Virus record (IMG/VR): IMGVR_UViG_3300033076_001485
Span: 1-64,000 of that record
From: a virus
Taxonomy: Duplodnaviria; Caudoviricetes
Length of the DNA stretch: 64,000 nucleotides
Strand: one strand, 5' to 3'
Numbering within the stretch: the first letter of the stretch is position 1; every line of letters begins with the position of its first letter. A program made the translations under genes and the position numbers. Shown here piece by piece: positions 7,410 through 57,440 of the stretch. The notes under the pieces are model-generated. The model was not told the DNA's origin. It did no database searches and saw only the letters and a program-made list of their open reading frames with translations.

Positions 7410-7642
7410 TGTCTAGAGTAACAACAGTAGAAATGCAGTTTGGGACTGCTATACTTGATTCATCAGGAACTGGACCTATTCTGGTTACTGTTACAGGTTC
7501 TGATGAAAATATAGCAGTTATGCTTACACCAGATGAAAACGTGAATTTATCTTCCTATGTATTAGGGAATCCACTCTACGCTATTGCTTCAACAGAGCAA
7601 AAAGCAGTAGACTATAACTACCTCATAGTGAGCTCAACTTAA
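7409..7642 (+). CDS. Small putative virion accessory protein
   Basis: TAATG overlaps at both ends; beta-rich composition. Confidence 0.5.
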   Translation: MSRVTTVEMQFGTAILDSSGTGPILVTVTGSDENIAVMLTPDENVNLSSYVLGNPLYAIASTEQKAVDYNYLIVSST

Positions 7643-9081
7643 TGGCAACAAAACCTCCAGATTTTAAAGCCTCTGGCATTAGAGCTGAGCGTCTAATCTC
7701 GTCAGGCAGTGCAAAGAAACCACAGCTTCTTATGTATAATGAGACAGCTGCTGGGAACAATGGCGTAAATGTTGATACTGATAATATCAAATTAACAGGC
7801 ACAGGCTCCGACACCTGGTTATTCATATCGGGTGCATTAGGAGGAAATGATAGAGTCACATTTGGTGGTGACGTATATATTTCAGGATCTTTGTATGGTG
7901 TAACAGTATCAGCAACACCTGCATCTCCTGTAAATTCAATACAATTTAATAATGCAGGAATATTTGGTGGTTCTTCAAATTTAACTTTTGTAGGATCAAA
8001 TTCACTAGTAATTACTGGTTCTAGCATTGTTAAAGGCGCGCTAAACGTATCCGGTTCGGCAGGAATAACAGGATCACTTGTTATCAAAGATGATATAGCA
8101 GACACTTCACAGCTTACTTTGAGCTCAAGTGCAGGCAATACCATTTTCAACATGTACAGTGATGGTGTATTTTATTTAACAAATAATGCAGCAAGCGGCA
8201 AGATAGTAATTGGTGCTACTCAACCTGACTTAACACAAAGTCAAGTAATTAAAATATACCCACAAAATAATCAAAGAAGTCTTACAGTTTTTAATGAGAC
8301 ACTTGCGGGATCCACAGCAGCAAGTCCTATTACAGCAACAGATACGAATTTCTTTGTTAATGGTATTCCTTCATCAAAAGGTAGCTCACAAAGAGGAACA
8401 GCAGTTTTTGGTGGTGACTTACTCACTTCAGGCTCAATTTATTCGCTCAATGGAAATGCAACAGTTACATCTACAGCAGGTTCTTCAACAGTTACACTTA
8501 CATCACCAGGCGGAACAACAACTCTAACAGAAACCAATGCAGGTAACCTAGAAATTAGAAATACTGCCCTTGCAGGACAATTTTTAGCATCAGTTAAGAC
8601 TTCTAATGGCGTAACTTGTAACTTTCTTGACGTAAGACCCAATGGATCTCTAACAGGTTCTGTTGTTTCTATTTTCCCATCATCTATCTACGCTGGTGCA
8701 TCAAATCCATTTAATTCATCAGATACAACATTCTTTGTTGCAGGCAAGAGTGGCGCCAAAGATGGAAACACAAGAGGAACTGCCGTCTTTGGTGGAGATA
8801 CTGTCATCTCAGGATCATCTTACCTTGGCACATCAAATACAGATAAGCTTGTTGTGAATAGCTTGTTATCTTCTAATATCATACCTGATGGTAATCGTAC
8901 AAGAAACTTAGGATCTGATACATCTCGATTTGCGAATATCTACACCGGTGACTTACATCTAAAGAACGACCGTGGAGATTATACTCTAATTGAAGAAGAA
9001 GATTGTCTTACAATACGTTTTAATAAAACAGGTAAGAGATACAAATTTGTGCTCGAAAGAGCGCCCGAATATGATGAATAA
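7642..9081 (+). CDS. Fibre-like virion protein 1
   Basis: G/S/T-rich; three FF(V/I)xG...FGGDxxxSGS repeats; SIQFNNAGIFGG module; C-terminal IYTGDLHL...GKRYKFVLE domain. Confidence 0.7.
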   Translation: MATKPPDFKASGIRAERLISSGSAKKPQLLMYNETAAGNNGVNVDTDNIKLTGTGSDTWLFISGALGGNDRVTFGGDVYISGSLYGVTVSATPASPVNSIQFNNAGIFGGSSNLTFVGSNSLVITGSSIVKGALNVSGSAGITGSLVIKDDIADTSQLTLSSSAGNTIFNMYSDGVFYLTNNAASGKIVIGATQPDLTQSQVIKIYPQNNQRSLTVFNETLAGSTAASPITATDTNFFVNGIPSSKGSSQRGTAVFGGDLLTSGSIYSLNGNATVTSTAGSSTVTLTSPGGTTTLTETNAGNLEIRNTALAGQFLASVKTSNGVTCNFLDVRPNGSLTGSVVSIFPSSIYAGASNPFNSSDTTFFVAGKSGAKDGNTRGTAVFGGDTVISGSSYLGTSNTDKLVVNSLLSSNIIPDGNRTRNLGSDTSRFANIYTGDLHLKNDRGDYTLIEEEDCLTIRFNKTGKRYKFVLERAPEYDE

Positions 9082-9103
9082 AAAATAAATTAGTCATCTC
9101 AAG

Positions 9104-9134: not shown

Positions 9135-11795
9135 ATGGCTTTTGTAGGTAGTCTCTCAGGATCAGGTGGTGCCAGTAACACAATAAATGTTACTGGTTCT
9201 ATGATTATTGCAAATCCGGGAACTGGTGGAGCATTTCCATCATTTCCAGGCACTGATGCAGTTTTTTTCGTCTCTGGTGCACTAGGTGGCAAGGCAGCAG
9301 GATCAAGAACAGTATCAGTTTTTGGCGGAGATGTTGTAGCTAGCGGATCGATAACAGTCGGTACAGGCTCAATCACAATTACTTCAAATGAGATCCAGTT
9401 CTTAGGTGGTATTGCTAAGATCTACAGCGGAACAAGTGGTTTAACATTTGCTGACTCAACTGGCACAAAGACACTTGCGTCACTTGCAACAGGTGGCGGA
9501 GATGTAACAGGACCAGCATCATCAACAGACAATGCGATTGCAAGATTTGATCTTACAACAGGAAAGATTATCCAGAATTCTGATGTAGCAATTGGAGATG
9601 CATCAGGTGGCGCAGTTTCAATAGACGCAGTCACATCAACTACTGTTAATCTTTTCAACACAAATGCAACAACTGCAGTTAATATCGGCGGTCAAGCACC
9701 TGCGGTGAGCATTGGTAAGACAGCAGGAATTGTAACAACAGCAGGAAAGCTTAAAGTTACAGGAAATGAGATCCAGTCTAGCACAGGCGAGCTTGCTTTA
9801 GCATTTACAGGCTCAAACGTCATCATCCCAGGTGATCTCACAGTTCTAGGAACGACAGTTACAGTTGATGCAACGACACTAACGATTGAAGATCCTGTCA
9901 TCGGACTCGGATTTACAAGTGGATCAACAGCTACGACAGCAGGCGATCGCGGATTTATTGGTGGAATGAGTACTGGCGGAAATGTTGCACTATTCTGGGA
10001 TAACACAGATAGCACATTCACAACAGTTAGAACAACAACTAGCGCTGGTAATGACCCAGTTGCAATTACGTCATACACACCATTTAGAGCGTCAAGTTAC
10101 CAAATTGGTGGCACTCCAGGGTCAGCAGTAGCAGCAGGATCAGCATATCTAAGCAGCTCAGATGCGCTAAATGTCCTTGTTAATCATACAGCAACAACAA
10201 CATTTACTAAGTCAGGAACGCCTACAATCCAGATTGGAGACTATCTAGGATCAACCGGAGAAGGTCAAATCAAAGGTGTTACAACAGGAAATGCTCTTGC
10301 ACCACTGTGGCTATCAGGATCGGTAGTCAAGGTTGGCGCAGGATCAATTTCAATTGCAGGTCTTGATGATATTGGTTCTGCAAGAATTACTCCTGTAACA
10401 TCTGGCGGCGGCGTAAGATTTGAAGGAAGAGACGGCGCAGGCATTTCGCTTGACATGGTTGTTTCTGGTAGCAAGACAACAATTGGCGCAAATACAGGCG
10501 TTGTAATCTTTGAAGGCGGTGGTGTCCCATATCTCACAGCTTCAGCAGCTGGCGGTGCAGTTAACCTAACAGCAGGTGCAGGAATTGGTACGGCAAGTGT
10601 ATTCAACTCTGTCTCAACAACAGTCAATTTTGCACAAGCAGCAACAACCATCAATATGGGCAATGTTGCAGGAACAAATAATGTTGCAGGCACAACAAAG
10701 TTCACACAAGGCTTAAGCGGTTCTCTCACTAAGCTCACAGATGGAACAAGCTATCTCATCGCAGGAACAAATATCTCTGTTACAACAGGCTCAAATGGCG
10801 CAGTCACAATTGCATCAATTGGCGGCGGCGATGTCACAGGACCAGGATCATCAACAGATACAGCAATTGCTCGCTTTAATGGGCTGACTGGAAAGATCAT
10901 CCAGAATACAGCCGGAGTAACGATTGATGGTTCAAATAACGTTGTAACATCAGGTTCATTTAGCACTAAAGACGGTGCTGGTACCGTAGTAGCTGTTATC
11001 AAGAACACCGGTGAGATCACTGGATCAAATATGCTGCTAAGCGGTGATCTTGCTGTGAACGGCGGTGATATTACCACAACTGCAACAACATTCAATCTAG
11101 TTACAGGATCTGCAACAACGGTCAATTTTGCACAATCAGCAAATGCTATTAATATAGGAAAATTGTCCGGTGGTGCAGTTGTTACAGTTAGCAGCATTCT
11201 TACCGGTTCAAATCCTGCATTCTTTGGTGATACTGTCTCAATTGGCGGTCCGGGTCAAACTAGCCTTATTACTACACAAACAACAGCTAATTTGTTTGAT
11301 ACAACAGCAACTACATTAAACTTTGCAAGAGCTGCAACAACAATTACAGCTGGAGCATCTGGTGGATCAACAACATTCCAGGGTAATCTAACTGGTTCCA
11401 ATGTTCTAGCCTCCTCACTTACAGTCACTAACGGTGCATCGTTTGGCGGCGGATTCGGCAGCACAGGTGTGTCAATTTCCACTACAGGAAATATCGCAGC
11501 AAATGGCACACTCCTGATCGAAGGTGCAACAACTTTAAGCGGATCAGTCATACTTGGTGATGCAACAGGCGATGATCTCATATTCAATGGTTATGCTGCA
11601 TCAAGCCTCATCCCTAAGACTACAAATTCATTTGACTTAGGAACACCCGACCTGCGTTGGCGAAATATGTACACAGGAGACTTGCACTTAAAGAATGAGC
11701 GCGGTGACTGGACAGTTATTGAAGAAGAAGATTATCTAACTCTTACAAACAATAAGAGCGGTAAGCGTTACAAGTTTGTTCTTGAAGAGATTTAA
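9135..11795 (+). CDS. Fibre-like virion protein 2
   Basis: G/S/T/A-rich; duplicated GGGDVTGPxSSTDxAIARFxxxTGKIIQN module; GDLTVLGTTVTVDATTLTIEDP module; same C-terminal YTGDLHLKN...GKRYKFVLE domain as fibre 1. Confidence 0.75.
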   Translation: MAFVGSLSGSGGASNTINVTGSMIIANPGTGGAFPSFPGTDAVFFVSGALGGKAAGSRTVSVFGGDVVASGSITVGTGSITITSNEIQFLGGIAKIYSGTSGLTFADSTGTKTLASLATGGGDVTGPASSTDNAIARFDLTTGKIIQNSDVAIGDASGGAVSIDAVTSTTVNLFNTNATTAVNIGGQAPAVSIGKTAGIVTTAGKLKVTGNEIQSSTGELALAFTGSNVIIPGDLTVLGTTVTVDATTLTIEDPVIGLGFTSGSTATTAGDRGFIGGMSTGGNVALFWDNTDSTFTTVRTTTSAGNDPVAITSYTPFRASSYQIGGTPGSAVAAGSAYLSSSDALNVLVNHTATTTFTKSGTPTIQIGDYLGSTGEGQIKGVTTGNALAPLWLSGSVVKVGAGSISIAGLDDIGSARITPVTSGGGVRFEGRDGAGISLDMVVSGSKTTIGANTGVVIFEGGGVPYLTASAAGGAVNLTAGAGIGTASVFNSVSTTVNFAQAATTINMGNVAGTNNVAGTTKFTQGLSGSLTKLTDGTSYLIAGTNISVTTGSNGAVTIASIGGGDVTGPGSSTDTAIARFNGLTGKIIQNTAGVTIDGSNNVVTSGSFSTKDGAGTVVAVIKNTGEITGSNMLLSGDLAVNGGDITTTATTFNLVTGSATTVNFAQSANAINIGKLSGGAVVTVSSILTGSNPAFFGDTVSIGGPGQTSLITTQTTANLFDTTATTLNFARAATTITAGASGGSTTFQGNLTGSNVLASSLTVTNGASFGGGFGSTGVSISTTGNIAANGTLLIEGATTLSGSVILGDATGDDLIFNGYAASSLIPKTTNSFDLGTPDLRWRNMYTGDLHLKNERGDWTVIEEEDYLTLTNNKSGKRYKFVLEEI
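9492..10910 (+). repeat. Two ~90-bp intragenic direct repeats (about 9492-9580 and 10821-10910)
   Basis: They encode GGGDVTGPASSTDNAIARFDLTTGKIIQNS and GGGDVTGPGSSTDTAIARFNGLTGKIIQNT. Confidence 0.8.
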
Positions 11796-11883: not shown

Positions 11884-14800
11884 ATGGCCCTTATAGGAAC
11901 AATTTCGGGAAGTGTCGGCACAGGAGGATCTTTAGTATCTTCTACGGCAATATCAGGTACCCTTATCATCGCAGATGCACCACCATCGAGCTTTCCAACT
12001 CTAGCATCTGGTGTCAAACTTTTCGTTTCAGGCGCAAAGAGTGCTATCGGTGCTGACGCTCCTGCCGCAATCTTTGGTGGTGACACATTTATCTCTGGAG
12101 CATTTGGTACCGACAGCTACATCCAGATGAAGCCCGTCAACACACTCCGGGTCCCGACGAACACGACTGCAAGCTACATCTACACCTCCGGAAGTACGAA
12201 TGACATGTACTTCACACAGTACGCAGGACCCTACACGAACACGACACGACTCCGTTGGCTGGAGTCTGTGGTCGGAACAGGTCTCCTTACCGGCGGTGTT
12301 CTCAGCACAGCACCAGGTTCTACTACGTTCAGTATGACTGCCGGTGAGGGTCTGGTCGTCACGCAGAACGCCTCCACATCTGAAGCTCCGTATCCGACGA
12401 TCTATCACGCCGTCTGGAATAGCGTTGTAAGCCGCTCCTTGGACTACATTAGCACTGCGCAGATCACCTACATCGGAATCGACGGATCTAGCCAGATCGT
12501 CCAGAGGACTACGCCCATCAGCCTCACCGAGGACTCGGCAATCATCCCGGTCGGAAGAATCCTCCACACCACGGGCTCCGTCACCTCTGCCGCCGTCATG
12601 AACCCGACGGTCTCATACGGTGCCTTCCAGTACCTCAATGACTTCGCAAGGGCAATCGGTCCCCTGAAGGTCACCGGTCACGTCCTCGCAGCATCTGGCT
12701 CAACTTTGGGCATCACGAGATCTGCGGGATCATCGTTCGTCCTTGGAAAGAACTACACACTCGATCCCAACAACCCGAACATTATCCCAGCCTCCAGCGA
12801 TCCTGCCACAGTCACCAGCAAGGTCTGGCGCCAGTACATCAACTCTTCAGGAAATCTCGTCATCGACTCTGGTGTCGGTGGCGCAGGTTACGTGGGAATC
12901 GATCCGAACAACTACGTCAATGCTGGTGTCCTGACTGCCGTCCCACCCAACAAGTACACTATCCAGCGTGCCTTCTGGTTCCCGAACTCGGTGACCAACG
13001 CTGTCAACGTTTGCTACGGTAGCACGATCTACAACTCCCTCAGCGCTGCTGTTTCTGCTGTTTCCACAGAATCATTCACGGAGGGTGCCAACACTCAGGA
13101 TGCCGCGATCTTCCTCGGTTACATCTGTGTGAAGGCGGGCACCACAGACCTCTCTAACACCTCGGACGCTGCTTTCATCCAGTCGGGCATCTTCAGGAAT
13201 GTGTCAGGTGGAGGAGGAGGCGGTGGGTCGACAGTTCCAGGAGATGGAGACACTTCTGTACAATTTAATGATGGCGGGTTCTTCAATGGAACGCAAGATT
13301 TTAGGTTTCTGAAGAGCACAGCTACAGCAATCGTCGGAAACATGGTCGTCACCGGGACGAACACATCGATGGTGAGCTCCGGTTCCATCCAGGTGAAGGA
13401 TGTCACAGGTAACGTTGTTGTCAACCTCACGAATACAGGAAACGTCACGGGTTCGAACCTTCTCCTGACCAGCGGATTCGTCGTCACCGGTAGCGGGATC
13501 ATCGAGTCGAACACATCAACATCGGCCCTCAGAGTGACGCAGCAAGGAACTGGAAATGCGATCCTGGTCGAGGATAGCGTGAATCCCGACTCGACACCGT
13601 TTGTGGTCGCTGCAGACGGAAAGGTTGGAATCGGTACGCTGGCATCATCCGCGAACCTCTTTGTGTCTGGTACCGATCCAAACATACCTGCTTTTGTCGC
13701 GAAAGGTGCCGACGTTACGGTGAACACGCTCACCGTTACAGGATCGGCCGGTGCCTCCACAGCGGTTGGTTTCGTCAACATCGATCAGGGTAACTACTCG
13801 AATAAGTACGGCCTCATGATCACGAACATCGGCGCCGGAACTGCGGGTCTTAAGCTTCGAGCTAATACAACTGGAGGCAGCTTCGCGATCGACAATATGA
13901 ACACGACGCCACAGATCACGATGACTCACAAGAACCTCTGGTTCAGATCTGACTCTACAGCAGCCGATACTTCACAGGTCACTTACAAGTTCATCGAGAA
14001 TAATAAAGTTGCAACATACCCGAACCAGAAAACTTTCCTCATCAGCGGTGAAATAACTGGACCTACGACCGGTAGTTACTTCGAGGTTGAGAAATCTGGA
14101 AGTGCAGGGTCTATCAAGCTTTTGGAGCTGCAGGGAGACACGACCGACAACGCGCTGTACGTCTCGGGTGCAATTCTAGCAACAGGAAGCATCTTTACCG
14201 CCGGAGATCTTGCTGTAAACGGCGGTGACATCACAACCACGTCGACGACTTTCAACCTGATCACAGGCTCGGCAACAACAGTCAATTTCGCCCAGACTGC
14301 GAATAGTCTGAACATTGGAAAGCTGACGGGTAATGTTGTCATTTCGAGCACAATCACAGGCTCATCTCCCGCCTTGTTCGGGGACACAGTCACTATCGGC
14401 GGCCCATCGCAGTCAACCCTCAACTCATCCCAGACGACTGCGAACATATTCAACACCACGGCCACAACAGTCAACATGGGTGGCGCAGCAACGACTATCA
14501 ACCTGGGGTCATCTCTAGGTCGAACGTTCATGAACGGAAATGCTTCTATCTCTGGAAGCCTTACGGTGACCGGCAGTGTCGCGGTCAACGGAGGTAATAT
14601 CACCTCTACAGCAGCATCGTTCAACATTGCAAACACGACACCGACAACAGTTACGATCGGAGATAATGCAGCGAACTTATATCTCGGTAAATCAGGTACG
14701 AACAGAGTTTTCATCCAAGGAAATCTTTTACTGAATAATAATGAGATTCAAGCATCTGGAGGTGGAACAGCACTAACATTCCCCGCAGGAAACACAAGTG

Positions 14801-15585
14801 CACTGTTTGCTGCAAATGTTACTGTGACAGGAGATGTTGCAGTCAACGGCGGAGATTTAACGACAACGTCAACATCTTTCAATCTTCTCAATGGAACTGC
14901 GACCTCTATAGCATTCGGAGGTGCAGCCGCCTCCATGAAGATTGCATCGGGCAGCGGGACAAACGTCGAGATAGGATCCTCATCAGGAAGAACTACCATC
15001 TACAACGATCTTGTTCTGGGAACAGGTAACATTCTCGTGACTAACGATGCTACTCCGATGTCGCTTATTTCAAGTGGAAATGTTGTCGCGAAGCTTGACG
15101 TCAATAACAACGGTACAGGACACAGGTTCGACATACAGGATTGGCGTGGAATCAGCCAGTTCTTCGTGGGCGAAGACGGTAATGCCGAGCTTTCTGGAAG
15201 TCTTGTCGTCAGCGGTACTACTAACATAGGGACGACCGTAGAACGCCTGTTAACAACCGTAAGCTCAACAGGCACTGTCACTTTTGATACAACATTCAGC
15301 AGCATCTTTTATGTCAACGGACCCGCAGGTGATATAACTGCTAACTTTACGAACGTGCCGACTACAAGTAATAACAGAGTAATTACACCTACGGTAATTC
15401 TGTCACAGAGCGCAACACCGCGAGTTATTAATGCCGTCCAAGTAAACAGTGCAGCGACCCCCATACTTTGGGCAAATAAGTTGACACCTGTCGGTACTGC
15501 AAATCAACAAGATGTGTATGGATTCAGTTTAATTCGTTCTGGTTCGATCTGGACAGTACTCGGCCAGATGAGTACTTACGGATGA
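11884..15585 (+). CDS. Long mosaic fibre / receptor-binding-type protein 3
   Basis: 1233 aa, G/S/T-rich; repeated GDxAVNGGDxTTT modules shared with fibre 2; SVQFNDGG module; C-terminal DVYGFSLIRSGSIWTVLG beta domain. Confidence 0.75.
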   Translation: MALIGTISGSVGTGGSLVSSTAISGTLIIADAPPSSFPTLASGVKLFVSGAKSAIGADAPAAIFGGDTFISGAFGTDSYIQMKPVNTLRVPTNTTASYIYTSGSTNDMYFTQYAGPYTNTTRLRWLESVVGTGLLTGGVLSTAPGSTTFSMTAGEGLVVTQNASTSEAPYPTIYHAVWNSVVSRSLDYISTAQITYIGIDGSSQIVQRTTPISLTEDSAIIPVGRILHTTGSVTSAAVMNPTVSYGAFQYLNDFARAIGPLKVTGHVLAASGSTLGITRSAGSSFVLGKNYTLDPNNPNIIPASSDPATVTSKVWRQYINSSGNLVIDSGVGGAGYVGIDPNNYVNAGVLTAVPPNKYTIQRAFWFPNSVTNAVNVCYGSTIYNSLSAAVSAVSTESFTEGANTQDAAIFLGYICVKAGTTDLSNTSDAAFIQSGIFRNVSGGGGGGGSTVPGDGDTSVQFNDGGFFNGTQDFRFLKSTATAIVGNMVVTGTNTSMVSSGSIQVKDVTGNVVVNLTNTGNVTGSNLLLTSGFVVTGSGIIESNTSTSALRVTQQGTGNAILVEDSVNPDSTPFVVAADGKVGIGTLASSANLFVSGTDPNIPAFVAKGADVTVNTLTVTGSAGASTAVGFVNIDQGNYSNKYGLMITNIGAGTAGLKLRANTTGGSFAIDNMNTTPQITMTHKNLWFRSDSTAADTSQVTYKFIENNKVATYPNQKTFLISGEITGPTTGSYFEVEKSGSAGSIKLLELQGDTTDNALYVSGAILATGSIFTAGDLAVNGGDITTTSTTFNLITGSATTVNFAQTANSLNIGKLTGNVVISSTITGSSPALFGDTVTIGGPSQSTLNSSQTTANIFNTTATTVNMGGAATTINLGSSLGRTFMNGNASISGSLTVTGSVAVNGGNITSTAASFNIANTTPTTVTIGDNAANLYLGKSGTNRVFIQGNLLLNNNEIQASGGGTALTFPAGNTSALFAANVTVTGDVAVNGGDLTTTSTSFNLLNGTATSIAFGGAAASMKIASGSGTNVEIGSSSGRTTIYNDLVLGTGNILVTNDATPMSLISSGNVVAKLDVNNNGTGHRFDIQDWRGISQFFVGEDGNAELSGSLVVSGTTNIGTTVERLLTTVSSTGTVTFDTTFSSIFYVNGPAGDITANFTNVPTTSNNRVITPTVILSQSATPRVINAVQVNSAATPILWANKLTPVGTANQQDVYGFSLIRSGSIWTVLGQMSTYG

Positions 15586-18742: not shown

Positions 18743-19404
18743 AAATTGCTATTCTTACAACAGCAATAAATAGACCCGATCTTCATACCGTTGTTTTTGA
18801 AAAACTCTTTAAAAGTAATTTCTTAAAGAATATTGATGTTGACTGGTATATCAATATTGATGCTGTTCCTACTTTGAAAGATACATTTGAGTTGACACAA
18901 GAAAATTTTCTTTCTATCACTAAAAATAGCAATAGTCATCGTTCTATTAAAAATATTACATTTCTTAAGCAACAGACACCAGATTTTAGAAATGCTTGCC
19001 GGATCTTATTAACAAAAGCACTTGAAAAAGAATATGATGCATATTTTTGGCTTGAAGATGATTGGGATTTAACCGATGTTGATCTTTCTCTTAAAGATAT
19101 GTTACCCCAAAAAGAATGGGACACTATATCTTTAAAATTAAGAAGTGAACCTTGCAATTTTAATCCTATGCTAATGAATAGAAAAATTGCAAGTTATCTA
19201 CTCCTTGGTTTAAACATGAATGATAGCGGCGATCCAGAAATTATCTTTGAAAAGTCTTGCTTGCATCTAATAAGAAATCACTTTATTCTACCAAAACTAT
19301 TTGAAGATCTCGGTAGAGACTGGATGAAAGATAAAAAAATTGTCAAGTGGAGTCGAAGAAATATCAAAGATCAACCTGTGACATACACTATTAAAGAAGA
19401 TTAA
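18739..19404 (+). CDS. GT-A fold glycosyltransferase-like protein
   Basis: ILTTAINRPDL N-terminus and YFWLEDDW acidic motif. Confidence 0.6.
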   Translation: MKIAILTTAINRPDLHTVVFEKLFKSNFLKNIDVDWYINIDAVPTLKDTFELTQENFLSITKNSNSHRSIKNITFLKQQTPDFRNACRILLTKALEKEYDAYFWLEDDWDLTDVDLSLKDMLPQKEWDTISLKLRSEPCNFNPMLMNRKIASYLLLGLNMNDSGDPEIIFEKSCLHLIRNHFILPKLFEDLGRDWMKDKKIVKWSRRNIKDQPVTYTIKED

Positions 19405-19405
19405 A

Positions 19406-20128: not shown

Positions 20129-20129
20129 T

Positions 20130-22846: not shown

Positions 22847-22896
22847 TTTGTTGTCCATATTGATTATGAATATTGACAAGAAATATTAGAAAGCAA

Positions 22897-24982: not shown

Positions 24983-24984
24983 AA

Positions 24985-32342: not shown

Positions 32343-32356
32343 AATAAGGAGCAAGA

Positions 32357-44444: not shown

Positions 44445-44454
44445 TGCTATTGTT

Positions 44455-44461
44455 ATAATTA
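44455..44461 (+). promoter_or_regulatory. Candidate late promoter ATAATTA
   Basis: Intergenic, 8 nt before ATG 44470. Confidence 0.45.
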
Positions 44462-44469
44462 GCAATATC

Positions 44470-47895: not shown

Positions 47896-50800
47896 TGGGT
47901 TATAATTTCAGGTCCTCTCTAAATCTGCAAGTTCAAACAAAGCCGAGCATTAGAGAAATATCAGCATCTAGGTTTGCGATTACAACAGGCTCAAATGGAG
48001 CCGTGACTGTTACTACGACACGTGCAGCCACGTTAGAAGAGCAAGCAGCAAGAAGACAGTCTGCAAGAGAATCTGGCGGTCTACCTCGTCAAATTGAGGA
48101 AGTTGGTGATTATGCAAGTTTACCTTCCTCAAAAAGAGATGTATTCCTTACAGGATCACATGGATTAACTTCTCTCTACCCAGCAATTCTTTTAACATCA
48201 CCAAGAACTTCAAAAATTGTTGACCTTAACTCAGGATTGACTGCAACACCTTTTATTATTGATCTTAATAACCAGGTTAAAAAAACAGTTGAGACAAGTG
48301 TCAAAAGTGCGATAGATGTGTACACACCTATTTTGTCTTTAACTAATAACGATTATAATCAATCTCTTAATGTTGCCAATAAATACGCAGATTTTTGCTT
48401 ACAAGCTGCTTTGCAAAAAGATCGTATTATTGAGTTGACTAATATTATTAATGCTAAAGTTACATCAAGTCCTAACCAATCACAAAACATTGTGATTGAC
48501 GGCAGAGAATATCAATTTTTGAATAATTTTCCCGATGTAATTTCTTTTATGAAGAATATCGATGATAGACTAAAATTAGAAACTTTCACCGAGGGCAATC
48601 AAGATAGTGTCAATACAAAGTCTTTTGTGCAAGTATTAAAAATTCTGTATAATCAATTTCTTATAGGAAATTTAGAGATTGGCTTGTCGTCAACAAGTAA
48701 CACGTATCTCTTGGGGAGCGTTGATTATTACATCAATAACACATTAAAAAGTGTAATTTCTGTTGGAAATGACTTTAGCATAGAAAATATCGACAGTATA
48801 TCACATGATGAGTTTAAAAATACTGACAGATTAATTGATCTAGTTAGAATTGTTCAAAGAGATCTTATCATTCAAAGTTCTCAAACGCAAATGACTACAA
48901 TTGCTGGTCAAGGTGTCACGGGTCAAGATGTTTTAAGTAATTTTATTGGAAAATACAAAGATCAATACCAGAGAAGCAACACATTTTTAAGTACAGGATC
49001 ACTGGAAATTAGTGACTTTACTCAAAATGAAACAGCGCCAATAAGATCAATTCTCGTTAAAGATGATATGAATTCATCATTTAATGTTTTAGATGTTGTT
49101 AAAGGGCACGATTATTTGCTCTACGAAGAGCTTGCTAAAGAGACAAATAGCGTTAATTTAGATAACTTAATAAGTTTCTCAAATAGCTATGCGCAATTTT
49201 CATTAAAGCTTCACCAACTTTACCAGGCAATTTTTAGAGATGACCAGACAAGACAAAAATGCTTAAGCATAATAGCATCTAACTTTTTGTCATTTTTTAC
49301 GTCAACACAGGTGACACAGACTGAATTTACATCAAAATCTAGTGCTGCAAGAACTGCAGCACTCATGGCAGCAGCCATGGATCAGTCAGTGTCAACATTT
49401 TTATTTAATCTAATATGTAAGCAAGCAAGAAATGAAGATAATGATGATCTTAGAGAAACTTTTGCGTTTAATGTTTTTTATGGATGGGGTGATGGTCTTA
49501 ATAATGACAACTTGCGCGTCAATGGATCTACAGCTGATGGCGGCGGGTATTATAGAATAAGATCAGATTATTTTAAAGGCGGCCCAGGAACGTCATTCGG
49601 CATGTTTCATGCTATTGCACAAGAAATTGAAAATGCGCTAGCAAGTGAAAATCTACAAAATAATGATGAAAGAAATACTACATTTTCTTTAAATTTAACC
49701 AGAGATGCCCGCGCATTTGTTTTCTATCAGCTATTCTTAGATATCATCAGAAATTTTTACTTTGACATTGATATAAGAGATATCACTTACAAAGAATTTA
49801 GAATTAGATACAAACCTGAGCAGTATAAATCAATAAAATTTGCATTAGAGAACTTTAGTAAAGGCACTGAAGAATTCAATAATGCAGTTAATTCTTATGT
49901 TTTTTCTGATTCAAATAATGAAAGTTATCAAGAAGATGCAAGATTATTTTATTCTAAGTACCTTGCAGCAATAACAAGAAAGATAAACGATCAAGAGCAA
50001 AATTGCCTTGATATTGTCAACTTATTTATAAATCATTCTGCGCAGTTTTCACAAGCAACAACGATATTGAAATCAAGCATCGATAGCATTAAGAGAATAC
50101 TTGCAGATAATGCAATGCTTGACAAAGAAAGCGTGCTGAATGCAATTCAAACTGAGCAGGCAAGTTTAAAAAAGAATATTGTCAATAGATACTCAAATGT
50201 GCTTCGTGGCGCAACTTATCTCCCGTCAGCAATTGATCACAATTACAATCAAGCATTAAACACGAAGACAGTTGTGTCAACATTGCCTGTCTTAAATGAT
50301 CCAATTGATGAATCTTTGACAAGAAAATTTTTGATTGCTGTAGGAATGCCATCAGGTCTACTAGAAAGTTTGAGATATCAAAATTCAATTTCAACATCTG
50401 AGCATTTGTATAGCATTGATCTTGTTTTTAAGAATCTACAGATCGATCAATCTACAGAAAGATTTTTTAGTAGATCTAATCTTGACAATTATTACGTTAC
50501 TAAATCTTATACTTTTTCATCTCGTATTTTTGTCAATGAGGGATACCAGCTTGCTGATGGTGCTGATGTAAAAGCAAATCAATTATCTAATTATGAGCAA
50601 ATTTATGCTGCAACAAAATACAAGGTTATTGACGATGATGGTCTCTATAGAGATGCAACACCTGATGATCTTGCTTTCATCTTGGGCGGTAGAACTGTTT
50701 TAGATAATCATCTTACAAGTCACTATTCAAAACTTTTATTAAAAACTACAACAGGCATAACACTTGATGAGGAGGCATTTGATTTAGTGCCTCAAACTAG

Positions 50801-51272
50801 ACAATATCCAGATACAGCTCAAGAAGCAAATTATACGACAATTGTTGATAGAATTTCTATTAATTACCCTGATACAGCAGAGGGTAATCTTAATAAAGAA
50901 CGTGCTCTGCGTGATCTATCGAGGGCAATCGTCCTCGCACCCCAGCAACATAAAACATCAATGATGATCTCTAAAACATTTGAAAGAATACACGTCATTC
51001 CAATTGATATTAGTAGCGTATTAGAAGAGTTGCAAATTTCAAATAGCGATATATGTTTTATTGATGTTGTAGCAAAAATACGCCTTGAAGATAATCAACC
51101 ACCAATTAGCTTCAACCAATCACCTACACGTCGCAGTTATTCACAAGCTTCTAATGATGTCTTTACGACAATTGGTCAAACTGACGCTAGATCACAAAGC
51201 GCAAGTAGTGTTGGTTTAAACGCATTTGTTGAAACTAGTAAAAAATTTAGCGGCATGTTAGGAGGCAGATAA
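47895..51272 (+). CDS. Large putative virion protein
   Basis: 1125 aa ORF, TAATG-coupled within the structural operon. Confidence 0.5.
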   Translation: MGYNFRSSLNLQVQTKPSIREISASRFAITTGSNGAVTVTTTRAATLEEQAARRQSARESGGLPRQIEEVGDYASLPSSKRDVFLTGSHGLTSLYPAILLTSPRTSKIVDLNSGLTATPFIIDLNNQVKKTVETSVKSAIDVYTPILSLTNNDYNQSLNVANKYADFCLQAALQKDRIIELTNIINAKVTSSPNQSQNIVIDGREYQFLNNFPDVISFMKNIDDRLKLETFTEGNQDSVNTKSFVQVLKILYNQFLIGNLEIGLSSTSNTYLLGSVDYYINNTLKSVISVGNDFSIENIDSISHDEFKNTDRLIDLVRIVQRDLIIQSSQTQMTTIAGQGVTGQDVLSNFIGKYKDQYQRSNTFLSTGSLEISDFTQNETAPIRSILVKDDMNSSFNVLDVVKGHDYLLYEELAKETNSVNLDNLISFSNSYAQFSLKLHQLYQAIFRDDQTRQKCLSIIASNFLSFFTSTQVTQTEFTSKSSAARTAALMAAAMDQSVSTFLFNLICKQARNEDNDDLRETFAFNVFYGWGDGLNNDNLRVNGSTADGGGYYRIRSDYFKGGPGTSFGMFHAIAQEIENALASENLQNNDERNTTFSLNLTRDARAFVFYQLFLDIIRNFYFDIDIRDITYKEFRIRYKPEQYKSIKFALENFSKGTEEFNNAVNSYVFSDSNNESYQEDARLFYSKYLAAITRKINDQEQNCLDIVNLFINHSAQFSQATTILKSSIDSIKRILADNAMLDKESVLNAIQTEQASLKKNIVNRYSNVLRGATYLPSAIDHNYNQALNTKTVVSTLPVLNDPIDESLTRKFLIAVGMPSGLLESLRYQNSISTSEHLYSIDLVFKNLQIDQSTERFFSRSNLDNYYVTKSYTFSSRIFVNEGYQLADGADVKANQLSNYEQIYAATKYKVIDDDGLYRDATPDDLAFILGGRTVLDNHLTSHYSKLLLKTTTGITLDEEAFDLVPQTRQYPDTAQEANYTTIVDRISINYPDTAEGNLNKERALRDLSRAIVLAPQQHKTSMMISKTFERIHVIPIDISSVLEELQISNSDICFIDVVAKIRLEDNQPPISFNQSPTRRSYSQASNDVFTTIGQTDARSQSASSVGLNAFVETSKKFSGMLGGR

Positions 51273-51273
51273 A

Positions 51274-53124
51274 ATGACAGAAACTTACTTTTCAAAGCCA
51301 AGTCTCCTCGTTGACTTGCCAGAAGTTAGAGAATTAAAATCTGAATTTGTGTATAATTTTTTCTCTGCTGATGAGAGAGTAAATGAATCATCAAATTCTT
51401 ATGATTCTAATAGTGTTTACGGGAGAGTTGGATTTACATCAACGAACATAGATTTAACAACAGCGACATACACAGAAAATGTTGCTACGTCAAATATTAC
51501 TGATCAAGATCTTAGAGCCTTCTACGGAAGGAAGGCCATCTATCCAAGATTTGTTAAAATAACATTTAAGAACCCTGAAGCAAATATTGACAATAGCTTA
51601 AGAGTTAAAACAACAGACATAAAAAATATTGCTAGAGAGGCAGCACTAAATGTCTTTGGTAGAACAGGCGTCAGCGTTATAGACACTTCACTTGACCAGA
51701 CTGTCTACAATATTTTATCAGGTTCGGTGTTAGATTCAACAAATGAAGAAAATACCAGCGTATCAATAAGAATTCTCAATGCAATACAGAACGGTCTGCA
51801 GCCTGATGGATATCGATATGCCACAACAGACACACGTCAGAGTCAGATAAATCATATTGAAGAAGCACTACAGGGTCTTGATTATGGTTTTTCATATTAT
51901 TCTAGCATTGCAGGCACAATAACCGCAGCAAGTCTAAATTCATCAAAAAATATCTACACTGATGAAATTTCAAGTACTCAAGATTCATTAAAAAGAATTG
52001 AAGAGCAAGCAATTGCTGCAAGTAATCCATATATTTTAAGAACATCTGATTATGAGGCAGAATTTAATTTTGCCAACATCGATGTCAATATACCTTCTTC
52101 TTCTAGATTGCCTGTAATAAAGAATTATTTAATAGGTTATATTCTTCAAAAATTTTCTACTAATGCTGATGGAACAACAAAAATCTTCAGTGAAAAGGTT
52201 GTCTTAAATCCCAAGATCACATCATTACTTGATCCAGATATAGCTTATGGAAGAAAATACAAGTATAGAGTAATTGCTCTTTACGCATGCTTATTTCAAA
52301 TGAGTCAGCGTGTAGTTAACGGTCGAGGTCTAGAAGAAGATAGAACTGTAACAAAATATGTCCTTTTCTCGTCAAGAGGAATGGAAACATCTACTATCTG
52401 TGAAGAATACATCGCGCCGCCGCCACCTGTTGATCTAAGATTTAGATATCGTGCTGATAATACCGGTTTAAACATAACATGGAATTTTCCAGTGAACCCA
52501 CAGCGTGATATCAAAAAATTTCAAGTTTTTAGAAGAAAAACAATATCTGAGCCATTCCAGCTCATTCGTGTATACGACTTTGATGACTCAGCATCTAAGT
52601 CGCTAGATCCAGAAAATGTTCCCGAGAGCCTTATTAGCCGAAATCTTTTACCAGTAACAATTCATCATGATCTAGCATTTACAAAAAATAGTAAGTTTAT
52701 CTATGCCGTGTGCGCAATAGATGCACACGGGTATACGTCAAACTATTCTGTTCAACTTGAAGCAAGCTATGACAGATATAGAAATAGAATAAATACACGT
52801 GTGATATCAAGATCAGATGCACCTAAACCGTATCCTAATATCTTTCTTAATCAAGATACCTTTGTTGACACAATGAAAATGTCTGGATACACAAGAGTCA
52901 ATATTTATTTCGATCCCGAATATGTCAAGATAGCAGATCAAAGCGGTGTTGACCAAAATCATATTGTTTTTAATAACAATAGAGGAGATGACAATTCATA
53001 TAAGCTTATGATAGTCAATACTGATTTTCAACAGAGTCAAACTCTTGATATTAAAATCAATGATAGTTATGTTCAACCACCGGTTATTACGCCATCCACG
53101 GCTCGTGTTTTTAGTCCCACATAA
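51274..53124 (+). CDS. Putative structural protein with FN3-like domains
   Basis: DPDIAYGRKYKYRV, PPPPVDL...LNITWNFP and FIYAVCAIDAHGYTSNYS. Confidence 0.6.
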   Translation: MTETYFSKPSLLVDLPEVRELKSEFVYNFFSADERVNESSNSYDSNSVYGRVGFTSTNIDLTTATYTENVATSNITDQDLRAFYGRKAIYPRFVKITFKNPEANIDNSLRVKTTDIKNIAREAALNVFGRTGVSVIDTSLDQTVYNILSGSVLDSTNEENTSVSIRILNAIQNGLQPDGYRYATTDTRQSQINHIEEALQGLDYGFSYYSSIAGTITAASLNSSKNIYTDEISSTQDSLKRIEEQAIAASNPYILRTSDYEAEFNFANIDVNIPSSSRLPVIKNYLIGYILQKFSTNADGTTKIFSEKVVLNPKITSLLDPDIAYGRKYKYRVIALYACLFQMSQRVVNGRGLEEDRTVTKYVLFSSRGMETSTICEEYIAPPPPVDLRFRYRADNTGLNITWNFPVNPQRDIKKFQVFRRKTISEPFQLIRVYDFDDSASKSLDPENVPESLISRNLLPVTIHHDLAFTKNSKFIYAVCAIDAHGYTSNYSVQLEASYDRYRNRINTRVISRSDAPKPYPNIFLNQDTFVDTMKMSGYTRVNIYFDPEYVKIADQSGVDQNHIVFNNNRGDDNSYKLMIVNTDFQQSQTLDIKINDSYVQPPVITPSTARVFSPT

Positions 53125-53886: not shown

Positions 53887-55074
53887 ATGCCCACATTTAA
53901 AGAAATAACAGCTGCTGATATTAAAACTAGCAGGTCAGCACTCAATCAGTTGGTCGATGTCATTCAAAATGACATCTCTGGTTCTAGCACAAGAAAGACT
54001 TATCAAGTCTTCGTTACGGGCGGGATCGGTCCAGGCGTCACATCATCACTTTTCCAGACAGTATTTGATCAAGATTACACACTCCAGACATCAAATGAAG
54101 TTCTAGACCTGACAGTGGGACTTTTCTCTGGAAGCGCCACAGTCGCCGCAGCAGTCACTGACATAGATTCAGCTGGAAAATTACTATTCCCATCACAGTC
54201 TCTTATGATGAGAGAGAAGATTAACATATATCGCCAATATGCACAAACACTTTTAGGTGATGCTGATTCTCAATTTTCTGCACCTTTTAGTGATCCAGGA
54301 ACATCAGACTATATTGATGAGGCAATTTTTATTAACTTTAAACGTTTGTTTGCTCGTGACAAGATTAAGCCACAAACATTTGCAATGAATTTTTACACAG
54401 CAAGCCTTGAATCAAACACGGCAGGCCCTAACTATACAAATGTTGATAAAACGTCAACACTTGCATCAGCAATTTTCACTGATGCAGGCAAGGGAACACA
54501 GTTTGGATTCGGTGGTCAAGTTGGTGATTTAGCTTTATCAACAGACTCAAATACAATTGTTGGCAATATCTTTTATGATCAAGGAATTCTTGTTCTTGAT
54601 GCGAAGAAAGCTATGTCAGGATCACAGCACGTTTCTGGCACTATAGACGCAATATCATCTACAGGCACAGCAGTTATTGGTAGCGCAGCTGGAAATCCAA
54701 ATGCTAAATTTATTCCCGATTTCTTCGTTTCCAGTTCAATCGATGACATTGTTGATCACTTGGCATCTTGTAGATTCCAGAGTGGTTCTCTTACAGCAAT
54801 GACTTTCCAGAATGTCACAAATATCAATTCAACACTTGTTTTCTGTCGTGCGACAGCAGACGAATTCAACTACTCAGCAAATCCAACATTCACTGATGCT
54901 GATGGGAACATTATTGTGATTGATGATCCAACAACAGATCGAACATTTAGTTACATCACAACAGTTGGTCTTTATGATGCAAATGATAATTTGCTTGCAG
55001 TCGCAAAGATGAGCAGGCCAATTGAGAAAAATGATGAAAAGGATTTGACATTTAGAGTTCGACTCGATTTCTAA
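53887..55074 (+). CDS. Putative baseplate/fibre-attachment structural protein
   Basis: C-terminal YITTVGLYDANDNLLAVAKMSRPIEK...FRVRLDF resembles tail-collar/fibre-attachment domains. Confidence 0.65.
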   Translation: MPTFKEITAADIKTSRSALNQLVDVIQNDISGSSTRKTYQVFVTGGIGPGVTSSLFQTVFDQDYTLQTSNEVLDLTVGLFSGSATVAAAVTDIDSAGKLLFPSQSLMMREKINIYRQYAQTLLGDADSQFSAPFSDPGTSDYIDEAIFINFKRLFARDKIKPQTFAMNFYTASLESNTAGPNYTNVDKTSTLASAIFTDAGKGTQFGFGGQVGDLALSTDSNTIVGNIFYDQGILVLDAKKAMSGSQHVSGTIDAISSTGTAVIGSAAGNPNAKFIPDFFVSSSIDDIVDHLASCRFQSGSLTAMTFQNVTNINSTLVFCRATADEFNYSANPTFTDADGNIIVIDDPTTDRTFSYITTVGLYDANDNLLAVAKMSRPIEKNDEKDLTFRVRLDF

Positions 55075-55088
55075 TATGTGGGAGAACG

Positions 55089-57440
55089 ATGTCATTCATC
55101 AAGCTACAGCCTGAGAACTTTGACACGTTCTCTCTTACTTTGCGCCCGAGAGCTGAATTTGTATCTTCATCATCTGGAGTAACAGGTTCAGTCCGTCTAA
55201 TCGAGCGTCCAAGCACTTATCTTAAAGAAGAAATTGCGATAGGTGAAAGAGGGACGTCAACATTTTATGAGACACCCGGTGTGCCAGGTTTTATTGAATT
55301 CATTCGTTCAAAAATGAATACAGACAGCGTTAAGCGTGATGATTACACGCGTTTTTATCTTAACGCTGTTAATTCGCTGGCAGAAAACCAGAAAAATAAT
55401 TTAGTAATACCAGCACAGCGCATCACACAATCAATTGATTTCGACACAAACTCATTCATAAAATCAACTGTTAAAAACATTTTAATACCACAGTATCGAT
55501 CTTCATATACTGACAGTGACTTTTCTTACAAGAATTATCATACAATTAATTTTTTTACATCATCAATGGTGTCTAACGATGCCGCAATCATGTATCCAAA
55601 TATTGATGATGTTTACACATTAACTGATAAATTTTCTATTGATTTGTACTTAAATCCAAGATATTTGGCAGATGCAAATGCGCATTTTAACGCGGGCGCA
55701 ATTTTGCATATGTCATCATCAATATGCTTGTCTTTGTTGACAGGATCACATAAAAATGAAAATGATCAAGTAGATAGATTTCGTCTTGCTGTCGCGTTTG
55801 GCCATAGCGCAAATGTGCCACCGTCAAGCATAGACGTAAATGCTGTTAATGGCACACGCTCATTTCCGCAAGATCTAATCTATGTTAGTGACGACAACAT
55901 GTTGAAACACAACCACTGGCACCATGTCACTGTAAGATGGGGGTCAACGGTCAACAATCGCACAGGAAGCATTCAAGTTGACAACATAACGTCATCTTTT
56001 TATTACCCGAGCTCATCAATAATTGACTTGTCTTATCCTAAAGTCTTATTTTTAGGAAATCAATACGTGGGTGCAGATGACACACAAAAGTTCTTTAATG
56101 CATCGGCGGCTTCAGATTTCGGTTTAGAGCAGATGAATCCGGGTGCTGTTGATCCTACAGGATTTACTTTTAGTAGCCCGCTTAATGCAGAAATACATGA
56201 TGTTAAGTTGTATAAACGATACATCACTACACAAGAAGCATTTCAAAATGCAATTCAAGCACCTAAAAAAGATGTTATTGGGCTTGCATTTTATGTTCCA
56301 CCATTTTTTACTAATAGCACAATTGATAACCAGTTCACTTTTCAGACACCTACAAGTTTACATAAAGTTATTCCAAGAGTTCCATTTAATACTAACCTTG
56401 CAACGCAAGCACAAGTTTTTTATCCACACCTACAAAACTTTTTAGTTGACTTAAAAAATCCTGATATAGGACGCCCACGCCTATACGGCTTTGAACCTAC
56501 AGTTGATACAGCAAAAGTTGACACATATGCATCAGAGCACATGTTTAGAAGCAGCTCGTATGCAAAGCGTGTCTACACAATTTTGCCCAACGATAATGGT
56601 CTTTTTTCTCCTAACTTTGAGTTCATATTGACTGCATCATCAGGTCTCGGTGTGATGTACCAACCCTATAAGACGCGGTTGGGTGAGGATATAACTTCAA
56701 TTAGCTTAGAAGAAATGGATCACACAACAGCACCAGGCTCATTAGGTGAAGCGACAGTCAATAGCATAGGTAGATCATATTTTATGTCACCAACGAACTA
56801 TCTCTTTGGTGGCACACCTGAAGAATATTTGGCATTAACGCAGGGAAATCTAACTACACTTCTATCATTTTCAGGTTCATCAGGATCTTTTGCAGATAGA
56901 ACAAGTAATTTATCTACAATCTATCAGATTAGTAATCTTTATTATGGTAATCAGATATTTCCAGAATCTTTTACAATTTCATCAACAGAATTGACAGGAT
57001 CTGGTGGAAAGATAAACATTACCTTGAAGGACAACGGACAAGGTGGACTTTACCGAGCCGACGCTGTTACACCAGCGCCTCGATGGGCAACCGTAGGCAA
57101 TCTCTTTTACGATGAGGGTCTTGCAATCATCAAGTCACCGCATCTCTATTACTTTGGTAAGGATAATTTTTCTGTCTCGTTTAATGGACACCAAAACATC
57201 CACACATATACCATAGATGCTATCTGTCCAGCTGGAGAGATCAATTCGTCATCTAATCCGAGTTACCTATCATTCCCACCAACAAATGAACAGAATGAAA
57301 CGGCAGATAACTTCGTGTACATCACGGGAATTAATATTCACGATGACAATTTCAATGTTATTATGAGAGCAAACCTGGCACAACCTGTGCTCAAGAGGCC
57401 CGATGAAGAATTTCTCTTTCGTCTCCGCTACGATATGTGA
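55089..57440 (+). CDS. Structural protein with LamG-like domain; C-terminus paralogous to 53887-55074
   Basis: WHHVTVRW and AEIHDVKLY; VGNLFYDEG and YITGINIHDDNFNVIMRANLAQPVLK. Confidence 0.62.
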   Translation: MSFIKLQPENFDTFSLTLRPRAEFVSSSSGVTGSVRLIERPSTYLKEEIAIGERGTSTFYETPGVPGFIEFIRSKMNTDSVKRDDYTRFYLNAVNSLAENQKNNLVIPAQRITQSIDFDTNSFIKSTVKNILIPQYRSSYTDSDFSYKNYHTINFFTSSMVSNDAAIMYPNIDDVYTLTDKFSIDLYLNPRYLADANAHFNAGAILHMSSSICLSLLTGSHKNENDQVDRFRLAVAFGHSANVPPSSIDVNAVNGTRSFPQDLIYVSDDNMLKHNHWHHVTVRWGSTVNNRTGSIQVDNITSSFYYPSSSIIDLSYPKVLFLGNQYVGADDTQKFFNASAASDFGLEQMNPGAVDPTGFTFSSPLNAEIHDVKLYKRYITTQEAFQNAIQAPKKDVIGLAFYVPPFFTNSTIDNQFTFQTPTSLHKVIPRVPFNTNLATQAQVFYPHLQNFLVDLKNPDIGRPRLYGFEPTVDTAKVDTYASEHMFRSSSYAKRVYTILPNDNGLFSPNFEFILTASSGLGVMYQPYKTRLGEDITSISLEEMDHTTAPGSLGEATVNSIGRSYFMSPTNYLFGGTPEEYLALTQGNLTTLLSFSGSSGSFADRTSNLSTIYQISNLYYGNQIFPESFTISSTELTGSGGKINITLKDNGQGGLYRADAVTPAPRWATVGNLFYDEGLAIIKSPHLYYFGKDNFSVSFNGHQNIHTYTIDAICPAGEINSSSNPSYLSFPPTNEQNETADNFVYITGINIHDDNFNVIMRANLAQPVLKRPDEEFLFRLRYDM

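Follow-up and report, generated by a model that had tools for sequence, protein, structure and literature searches.

Glycosylation of virion proteins by phage-encoded enzymes has, to our knowledge, been shown so far only in some mycobacteriophages. Elsewhere, the O-GlcNAc transferase pair GtfA/GtfB acts on serine-rich repeat adhesins of streptococci and staphylococci; the autotransporter heptosyltransferases TibC and Aah act on TibA and AIDA-I; in T-even phages, alpha- and beta-glucosyltransferases act on hydroxymethylcytosine in DNA. The subject of the present analysis is a window of 64,000 nucleotides (positions 1 to 64,000 of the IMG/VR record IMGVR_UViG_3300033076_001485; the start of a viral contig of 123,469 bp, completeness 39% by CheckV). 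A glycosyltransferase (GT) island (16874-31327, ~14.5 kb) lies there between three fibre genes (7642-15585) and a baseplate block, and the tripeptide [ST]-G-S recurs in the fibre and baseplate proteins on both sides of it. A sequence-only reading of the window had proposed sequon-directed virion glycosylation, with a methylated glycan coat on the particle.

As in the mycobacteriophages, the GT genes lie within or next to blocks of structural genes, and the enzymes are proposed to coat the phage's own virion proteins (Che8-type virion glycosylation: Freeman et al. 2023, cited in PMC12619734). The mycobacteriophage glycans are reported on C-terminal tails of the capsid and tail-tube subunits; here, neither capsid nor tube is enriched in the motif, and the candidate sites are dispersed over the fibres, the outer baseplate proteins and the sheath inserts. 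Che8 and Corndog have no [ST]GS excess. The present island, with its 7 GT-like genes, 2 methyltransferases and sugar-nucleotide enzymes, is of far greater size and is known from genes alone. Large aquatic Bacteroidota phages with four core GT orthogroups and predicted Flavobacteriia hosts were described as 'Moraphages', with DNA, host serotype and virion listed as possible GT targets (PMC12619734); that paper names none of the phages immuto, Mel-JY01, RM378 and LR756508 considered below, and its passages on glycosyltransferases and glycosylation propose no acceptor motif.

The island ends in two adjacent paralogous GT-B genes, designated GT4a (28923..30167, + strand, 414 aa) and GT4b (30167..31327, + strand, 386 aa), and in this it resembles GtfA/GtfB, which glycosylate Ser in S-[A/G/S]-S-like contexts in the cytoplasm before assembly or export, further GTs extending the glycan. 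Unlike in GtfA/GtfB, no DUF1975 insertion was found in the pair, nor any sequence similarity to them, and the acceptors would be folded beta-rich domains rather than long disordered repeats. With TibC/Aah the likeness is a soluble cytoplasmic GT acting on many Ser at repeated positions of a beta-rich surface protein; by description, those enzymes belong to another GT family than GT4 and their acceptors are the beta-helix repeats of one protein, with no proteome-wide tag. With T-even DNA glucosylation the system has in common core phage-encoded GTs, here with a probable phage-intrinsic target; it differs in the enzymes (GT4/GT2, not the T4 GT folds, by Pfam), in the absence of a ThyA-type hydroxymethylase from Mel-JY01 and RM378, and in the unglycosylated DNA of immuto.

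The excess of the motif was counted in the source phage. Against per-protein composition, TGS (53 seen, 18.6 expected; z 8.0) ranked 1 and SGS (49 seen, 20.1 expected; z 6.4) ranked 3 among the tripeptides observed in the proteome; rank 2 was taken by VTG, which overlaps V-TGS. With group-wise expectations from 2000 within-protein shuffles, [ST]GS occurred 43 times in the fibres (9.6 expected, z 10.9) and 48 times in the non-fibre virion blocks (16.7 expected, z 7.8; Poisson p 3e-10), but 2 times in the proteins of the island (1.8 expected) and 9 times in the remaining proteins (10.3 expected). The excess noticed by the sequence-only reading persists on composition correction. Its estimate by eye of about nine motifs in the 479-aa fibre protein agrees with the 9 counted; the instances it named in 36457 (FSGS, STGS, ASGS), in 42090 (ATGS, FTGS, MTGS, ITGS) and in 37971 (FSGS, LSGS, TSGS) are all present; and the rarity it had noticed outside the virion amounts to zero [ST]GS in PrkA (906-2927), in the glycosyltransferases and in the 1039-aa SbcC-like protein. 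The tail tube has 0 motifs, and tube, hub, gp6-like, gp25-like and tape-measure-like proteins were at or under expectation.

First-order Markov correction lowered z to 3.3 (TGS) and 2.5 (SGS), because the motif itself raises the counts of the dipeptides TG, SG and GS. Its coding sequences comprise more than 25 distinct 9-mers, which rules out a DNA-level word as its cause. BLAST all-against-all returned only the fibre-fibre, 53887/55089 C-terminal and sheath-sheath pairs; the other non-fibre carriers are unrelated by BLAST, and recent duplication of a motif-bearing domain was thereby ruled out for them. Given this codon diversity and the lack of recent paralogy among the carriers, the signal lies at the protein level.

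The source phage is a distant T4-like myovirus: two sheath paralogues, tube, hub and gp6/gp25-like wedge proteins were recognised, and the major capsid protein (MCP) shares 47-51% identity with those of immuto, Mel-JY01 and LR756508 (an uncultured phage of 484 kb) across the aligned ~60%, and ~40% with those of RM378 and LR756511. Megablast of 24 kb against the phage collection gave zero matches. In a four-protein tree, LR756508 falls inside the clade as sister to immuto + Mel-JY01 (99% support) and the source phage forms the next branch; the branching order of RM378 and LR756511 is left unresolved by that tree. The cultured members infect Flavobacterium (immuto), Rhodothermus (RM378) and Microcystis (Mel-JY01), i.e., hosts of three phyla.

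Whole-proteome ratios of seen to expected [ST]GS were 2.63 (source phage), 2.43 (immuto), 2.42 (Mel-JY01) and 2.68 (RM378). Other large T4-like phages gave 0.68 (T4), 1.34 (LR756511) and 1.43 (LR756508); unrelated phages gave 1.47 (S-PM2), 1.44 (A511), 1.49 (Che8), 0.80 (phiKZ), 1.22 (Corndog), 1.74 (Mu), 0.92 (Ma-LMM01), 0.72 (crAss001), 1.64 (lambda) and 1.41 (11b). TGS and SGS occupied ranks 1-31 in the source phage, immuto, Mel-JY01 and RM378, and elsewhere ranks from the tens to the thousands (best 69 and 70). The baseplate, sheath and fibre proteins of T4 contain 9 motifs (12.3 expected). A generic trait of fibres or of S/T/G-rich proteins was ruled out by T4, S-PM2, A511, phiKZ, Ma-LMM01 and crAss001, and also by lambda, Mu, 11b, Che8 and Corndog. 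By these counts the excess is specific to the clade, being common to the source phage, immuto, Mel-JY01, RM378 and ~160 IMG/VR loci. T4 gp6, tried as a query for a wide T4-like baseline, returned only seven near-T4 loci and was left unused.

In a set of proteins pooled from 80 IMG/VR relatives, with genes lying downstream of the gp6-like one (175 proteins, 96 thousand aa), 765 [ST]GS were found (139 expected, 5.5-fold); a second set of 80 loci gave 678 (134 expected, 5.05-fold), the pooled loci being mutually related, so that these totals are not independent counts. Among x-G-S tripeptides in the pooled set, only S (5.65) and T (5.28) are enriched. Enrichment in [ST]-x-S falls from G (5.5) through A (2.9) to S (2.1), and in [ST]-G-x from S (5.5) through T (1.7) to A (1.5), with ratios near 1 for permuted tripeptides. 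Positions -1 and -2 prefer V, F, L, I and W, F, Y, and acidic residues are depleted upstream; the residue after the motif is preferably W, L or I and is never Pro. Overall, one or two hydrophobic residues usually precede the motif, and Leu, Trp, Ile or Val follows it.

Retention of the sites was followed at two depths. Between the source phage and the relatives G001 and G002 (65-80% identity), 12 of 31 sites are strictly retained in all three genomes, and those not retained change to SGT, SSS, TSS, TAS and similar; orthologues keep [ST]GS as such in 46 of 68 cases, compared with 40 of 91 for permuted tripeptides of S/T, G and S (p 0.004). The 36457 family (35 sequences, 22-53% identity) has on average 5.5 motifs per member (0.94 expected). 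About 12 hot columns were found in its alignment, each filled in 25-70% of members, and 23 further columns are singletons or doubletons; a single domain of ~100 aa contains as many as 7 of the hot columns, each partly filled. In this family density is kept more than position, i.e., sites turn over within a conserved density.

The AlphaFold2 (AF2) model of 36457 (predicted local distance difference test, pLDDT, 84.9; predicted template modelling score, pTM, 0.84) consists of a CBM-like sandwich followed by Ig-like sandwiches; that of 37971 is of moderate quality (pLDDT 62.8), its LamG and sandwich regions being usable. In the two models, 7 of 11 motifs abut a strand terminus (background 35%, DSSP; p 0.05), and the local contexts comprise a strand end running into a helix, a hairpin, a helix C-cap leading into a strand, and a strand start. 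In six sheath proteins, 21 of 22 motifs lie within the region aligned to T4 gp18 residues 60-318, which we take to be the outward-facing sheath domains, or in insertions there. The carriers have unrelated folds (fibres, CBM/Ig-like and LamG sandwiches, sheath inserts), and the motif appears to be maintained by selection on the outer tail proteins of a deep T4-like, mostly jumbo, clade. SGT/TSG/GTS repeats (z 12-15) dominate the first two large proteins of Mel-JY01 (635-4591), a low-complexity variant that differs from the dispersed occurrence of [ST]GS.

Every large open reading frame (ORF) of the window is on the + strand, and so are all features given below. Six GT ORFs of the island exceed the Pfam cut-offs (GT2: 16874, 19406; GT4: 21013, 21866, 28923, 30167), and a seventh GT-like ORF (20130) is sub-threshold; the GT cluster announced by the sequence-only reading is present, with a lower count than the 'about ten' genes given there. 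The two methyltransferases (both Methyltransf_24) and the sugar-nucleotide enzymes that it listed were both found. The conserved 5' flank of the island is a 622-aa protein (16874..18742; GT2 domain at residues 300-419; 82% identical in G002), the ESM-Atlas look-alike clusters of which are almost wholly viral. It is followed by a variable middle (18739..26154) with the GT2 gene 19406, the GT4-like genes 20130, 21013 and 21866, the Methyltransf_24 genes 23751 and 24341, and three family-less ORFs. In G002 (2716-15732) this middle is swapped for an unrelated 13-kb cassette of 16 genes between flanks that are 72-82% identical; the exchange is a cassette-like diversification, as in O-antigen loci.

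Downstream, a UDP-Glc/GDP-Man dehydrogenase-like protein (332 aa, without a match to the C-terminal domain) and a short-chain dehydrogenase/reductase (SDR) are encoded (26177..28068); the SDR at 27172 is nearest to UDP-hexose/uronate 4-epimerases. A UDP-xylose route with proteoglycan-like Ser-Gly xylosylation was considered and dropped, the SDR being nearer to 4-epimerases than to UDP-glucuronate decarboxylase; the depletion of acidic residues around the motif disfavours it as well. A PD-(D/E)XK nuclease (28078..28899) is the first gene of a conserved triad with GT4a and GT4b, and a small protein with one transmembrane segment (31328), together with the conserved ORFs 31596 and 32357 (31328..32716), connects the GT pair with the baseplate genes. 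No transmembrane segment was found in the proteins of 16874-31327 by the Kyte-Doolittle method (window of 19 residues, threshold 1.6); the locus therefore has no initiating phosphoglycosyl transferase, flippase, polymerase or exporter, and differs from Wzx/Wzy or ABC-type polysaccharide loci, which encode polytopic membrane proteins.

GT4a and GT4b scored 50.4 and 28.5 bits, respectively, with Glycos_transf_1 (GT4; Pfam cut-off 26.4), and both match phrog_2170. The E-x7-E pair of GT4a (E285 and E293), a motif of retaining GT-B enzymes, is invariant across 16 sequences; in GT4b, E271 is invariant and the second Glu stands in the consensus EGFGLPILE without being invariant. Among 50,697 phage records searched by tblastn, GT4a matched only immuto (four records), LR756508, Mel-JY01 and RM378, and its look-alike clusters in the ESM Atlas, too, are almost wholly viral. 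The two genes adjoin in the source phage, immuto, Mel-JY01, RM378, G005 (309 kb, 91% complete), G023 (181 kb, 100% complete) and most other long contigs. Nearly all of 78 IMG/VR loci taken around GT4a show the order nuclease-GT4a-GT4b, even where the remaining neighbourhood differs; in the closer subclade the triad is followed by the small membrane protein and a homologue of 31596, and then by the gp6-like baseplate gene. Only 12 immuto genes have BLAST homologues in both Mel-JY01 and RM378; GT4a is among them, and the other 11 serve replication and morphogenesis.

The co-variation of the motif excess with the GT cluster, a check proposed by the sequence-only reading, came out partly in favour of a link. 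Virion-block ratios in genomes with GT4a and GT4b were 3.47 (source phage), 3.30 (immuto), 3.00 (Mel-JY01) and 4.14 (RM378), and those of LR756511 and T4, which have neither gene, were 1.35 and 0.73; ten other pairless phages likewise have no excess, and every sufficiently complete relative with the excess also carries the pair. In LR756508 the nuclease and GT4a are present and GT4b was not found by BLAST or profile search; its virion-block ratio of 1.39 (the block limits within the 484-kb genome being rough) is far under those of its sisters (Poisson P 2e-9), and this contrast is suggestive of a link between GTs and motif. On the other side, the comparison is largely confounded by shared descent. 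No close GT-less relatives were found, G001 and G002 both holding the island, and the distant IMG/VR contigs without a GT4 match are 9-45% fragments and uninformative.

The most likely single reading of these data, plausible but unproven and held tentatively, is that [ST]-G-S is a tag read by a phage-encoded protein O-glycosylation system. One ordered tripeptide preferred lineage-wide across non-homologous outer proteins speaks for a trans-acting reader, and the sequon reading is placed first because GT4a is the sole clade-conserved gene found to be neither structural nor replicative, with GT4b alongside it in the complete genomes that have the excess. In the proposed course, soluble cytoplasmic GT4a/GT4b would put the first sugar(s) on Ser/Thr where strands end exposed in virion proteins, either folded or still folding (fibres, peripheral beta-sandwich baseplate proteins, outer sheath domains); the neighbouring GTs, methyltransferases and nucleotide-sugar enzymes would extend the glycan, and this cassette is exchanged among relatives much like an O-antigen locus. 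We infer the action of the GTs on proteins, the motif as their signal, the modified residue and the role of the glycan (shielding, stability or adhesion); the Ser/Thr of the motif as acceptor is pure inference, and the terms 'methylated' and 'coat' are guesses. The wider proposal, namely that the whole clade (hosts in Bacteroidota, Rhodothermota and Cyanobacteria) carries its own O-glycosylation in which GT4a/GT4b prime [ST]-G-S at strand ends and an exchangeable cassette diversifies the tail glycan, is possible but more doubtful.

Several results weigh against protein glycosylation at the motif. There is no chemical evidence for a glycan on any protein of the clade. The MCP, the largest exposed surface, is not enriched (1 motif, 1.05 expected). 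In LR756508, 9 motifs (3.6 expected) persist in the 12 virion orthologues identified by BLAST, although GT4b was not found there, and the association of GTs and motif amounts essentially to one origin plus one partial contrast within the clade. By Pfam and PDB sequence comparison, GT4a and GT4b have no DUF1975 or other protein O-GT domain, the PDB matches being generic GT4 enzymes such as SPS, PBCV-1 B736L, MshA and BshA, and the tight linkage of the pair to the PD-(D/E)XK nuclease hints at a role related to nucleic acids. Finally, the motif sites tend to adjoin beta-strand ends and many keep their position among homologues, just as expected of a structural cap. The sequence-only reading had named four refutations for its proposal (loss of the excess on composition correction, motifs as buried structural turns, the same excess in GT-less relatives, and DNA or host lipopolysaccharide (LPS) as GT target); three of them were run, none refuting the proposal and none proving it, and it is partly supported.

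The structural explanation just touched upon, a serious rival, would make [ST]-G-S a beta-strand cap, kink or tight turn inherited with the sandwich and fibrous folds of the clade, while the GT island does something unrelated, e.g., remodelling of host envelope glycans or production of a soluble glycan. It would account for the strand termini, for the hydrophobic residues on both sides and the exclusion of Pro after the motif, for sites conserved in position down to 22-50% identity, for the excess kept by the LR756508 baseplate orthologues without GT4b and for the unenriched MCP. We consider it somewhat unlikely, since the T4 homologues of sheath, baseplate and fibres fall under expectation and the S/T/G-rich fibres of other phages have no such excess, while the motif is carried by unrelated folds in a variety of local contexts, with as many as seven partly filled hot columns in a single domain; moreover, an ordered tripeptide spread lineage-wide over non-homologous proteins usually implies a trans-acting reader. 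Such a reader could be something other than the GTs, with the motif serving, e.g., phosphorylation, an assembly chaperone or the binding of host glycans. The clade-specific excess at protein level would suit this idea, as would the putative PrkA-like protein at 906-2927, the chaperonins encoded by relatives and the CBM-like or LamG lectin-type folds of several carriers. It is improbable nonetheless: PrkA was dropped as motif reader, having no BLAST homologue in immuto, Mel-JY01 or RM378, all of which show the excess; GT4a is the sole non-structural, non-replicative gene among the few common to these three phages; and fibres, sheath inserts and sandwiches are unlikely to have one common binding function.

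A further alternative is that phage DNA is what the triad and the island glycosylate, in the manner of T-even phages, and that the motif excess has nothing to do with them. The nuclease stands nearly always directly upstream of the GT pair, and phage GTs that hypermodify DNA are known (Pyle et al. 2024, cited in PMC12619734). Liquid chromatography with UV and mass-spectrometric detection of immuto DNA, however, revealed only dA, dC, dT and fdPreQ1 (bioRxiv 10.1101/2023.04.13.536721). PF00303 (the ThyA/hydroxymethylase family) is present in immuto and G023 and absent from complete Mel-JY01, complete RM378 and the source contig (39% of the genome). Because the immuto nucleosides are unglycosylated, a ThyA-family gene is lacking in the latter three, and seven GT-like genes with two methyltransferases and a swappable cassette far exceed the known needs of DNA glycosylation, DNA is disfavoured as GT target; the alternative also leaves the motif excess unexplained, and we regard it as very unlikely. 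Conservation of the GT pair across hosts of three phyla makes it more likely that the target is something the phage itself brings. Modification of DNA or host LPS, the outcome that the sequence-only reading had set against its own proposal, is accordingly not supported by the immuto nucleosides, the distribution of PF00303, the membrane-free island or the three-phylum host range; the nuclease linkage still hints toward DNA. As to chance, S/T/G-rich composition or a DNA-level word, the carriers are indeed rich in S, T and G and the dipeptide model absorbs part of the signal; the z values of 7.8-10.9 over within-protein shuffles, the ranks of TGS and SGS, the unenriched permuted tripeptides, the diversity of 9-mers and replication of the excess in hundreds of relatives leave this explanation a negligible probability, and it is already refuted.

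If glycosylation at [ST]-G-S is true, an acceptor sequon for the glycosylation of phage virions would be defined for the first time, and the glycan would resemble a viral 'O-antigen' of the tail. Aquatic jumbo phages of a large group with global distribution would then coat their adsorption apparatus with self-made glycans that vary from strain to strain; this would matter for the recognition of hosts, for the stability of the particle and for its evasion of antibodies or grazing, and the sites would be predictable from sequence alone. The idea is testable in three cultured phages (immuto, RM378, Mel-JY01) having both the excess and the GT pair. If the structural explanation is true, the motif would be an unusually sharp lineage-specific tripeptide signature of tail-protein folds.

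The motif-bearing proteins of the window and their neighbours are as follows. The fibre block comprises a 479-aa protein (7642..9081; 9 [ST]GS, 1.7 expected), which has C-terminal and repeat segments in common with the next one; an 886-aa protein (9135..11795; 16 [ST]GS, 3.8 expected) with a weak match to phrog_4527, short tail fibre; and a 1233-aa protein (11884..15585; 18 [ST]GS, 4.1 expected). The GC content of 11884-15585 is 0.51 (0.33-0.42 elsewhere), which suggests recent import or a distinct codon regime for the distal fibre. Directly after the fibres, a PA14/GLEYA + F5/8 type C (discoidin) lectin-like protein with zero motifs is encoded (15590..16642), by its domains a likely carbohydrate-binding receptor-recognition protein. 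The short ORF that directly follows (16643-16843) encodes MIKELLKDEEGQSTVEYMLLISVIVIAIVAAAYVF..., a look-alike of Flp/Tad-type prepilins.

On the other side of the island, the gp25-like and gp6-like inner baseplate wedge proteins (34131..36448) have 0 motifs (0.7 expected). They are followed by the 503-aa protein with the CBM-like domain and Ig-like beta-sandwiches (36457..37968; 3 motifs); a 1126-aa baseplate protein with a LamG domain (37971..41351; 8 motifs, 1.3 expected); family-less virion-block proteins of 784 aa (6 motifs) and 335 aa (3 motifs) (42090..45477); an 805-aa virion-block protein (45478..47895; 0 motifs, 0.8 expected, and 0 in both relatives too); virion-block proteins of 1125 aa (3 motifs) and 616 aa (1 motif) (47895..53124); and proteins of 395 aa (4 motifs) and 783 aa (6 motifs, LamG-like) with a common C-terminus (53887..57440). 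The last family is clade-specific and is kept in immuto, Mel-JY01 and RM378. PHROGs and Pfam searches with the proteins of 36457-57440 gave nearly nothing besides LamG, and PHROGs searches with the motif-rich RM378 proteins gave a single weak 'virion structural protein' match.

Beyond the window, the contig encodes two tandem tail-sheath paralogues (genome 77630-83749; 1039 and 989 aa at 30% identity), in which the N-terminal insertions are very large. The MCP (genome 71756-73690) is 644 aa long, ~100-120 aa above the length in relatives, and aligns by BLAST in two pieces, hence an inserted domain. Upstream of the fibres, a PIN domain is fused to PhoH (5764-7065; 433 aa); the PhoH part alone occurs in immuto and Mel-JY01.

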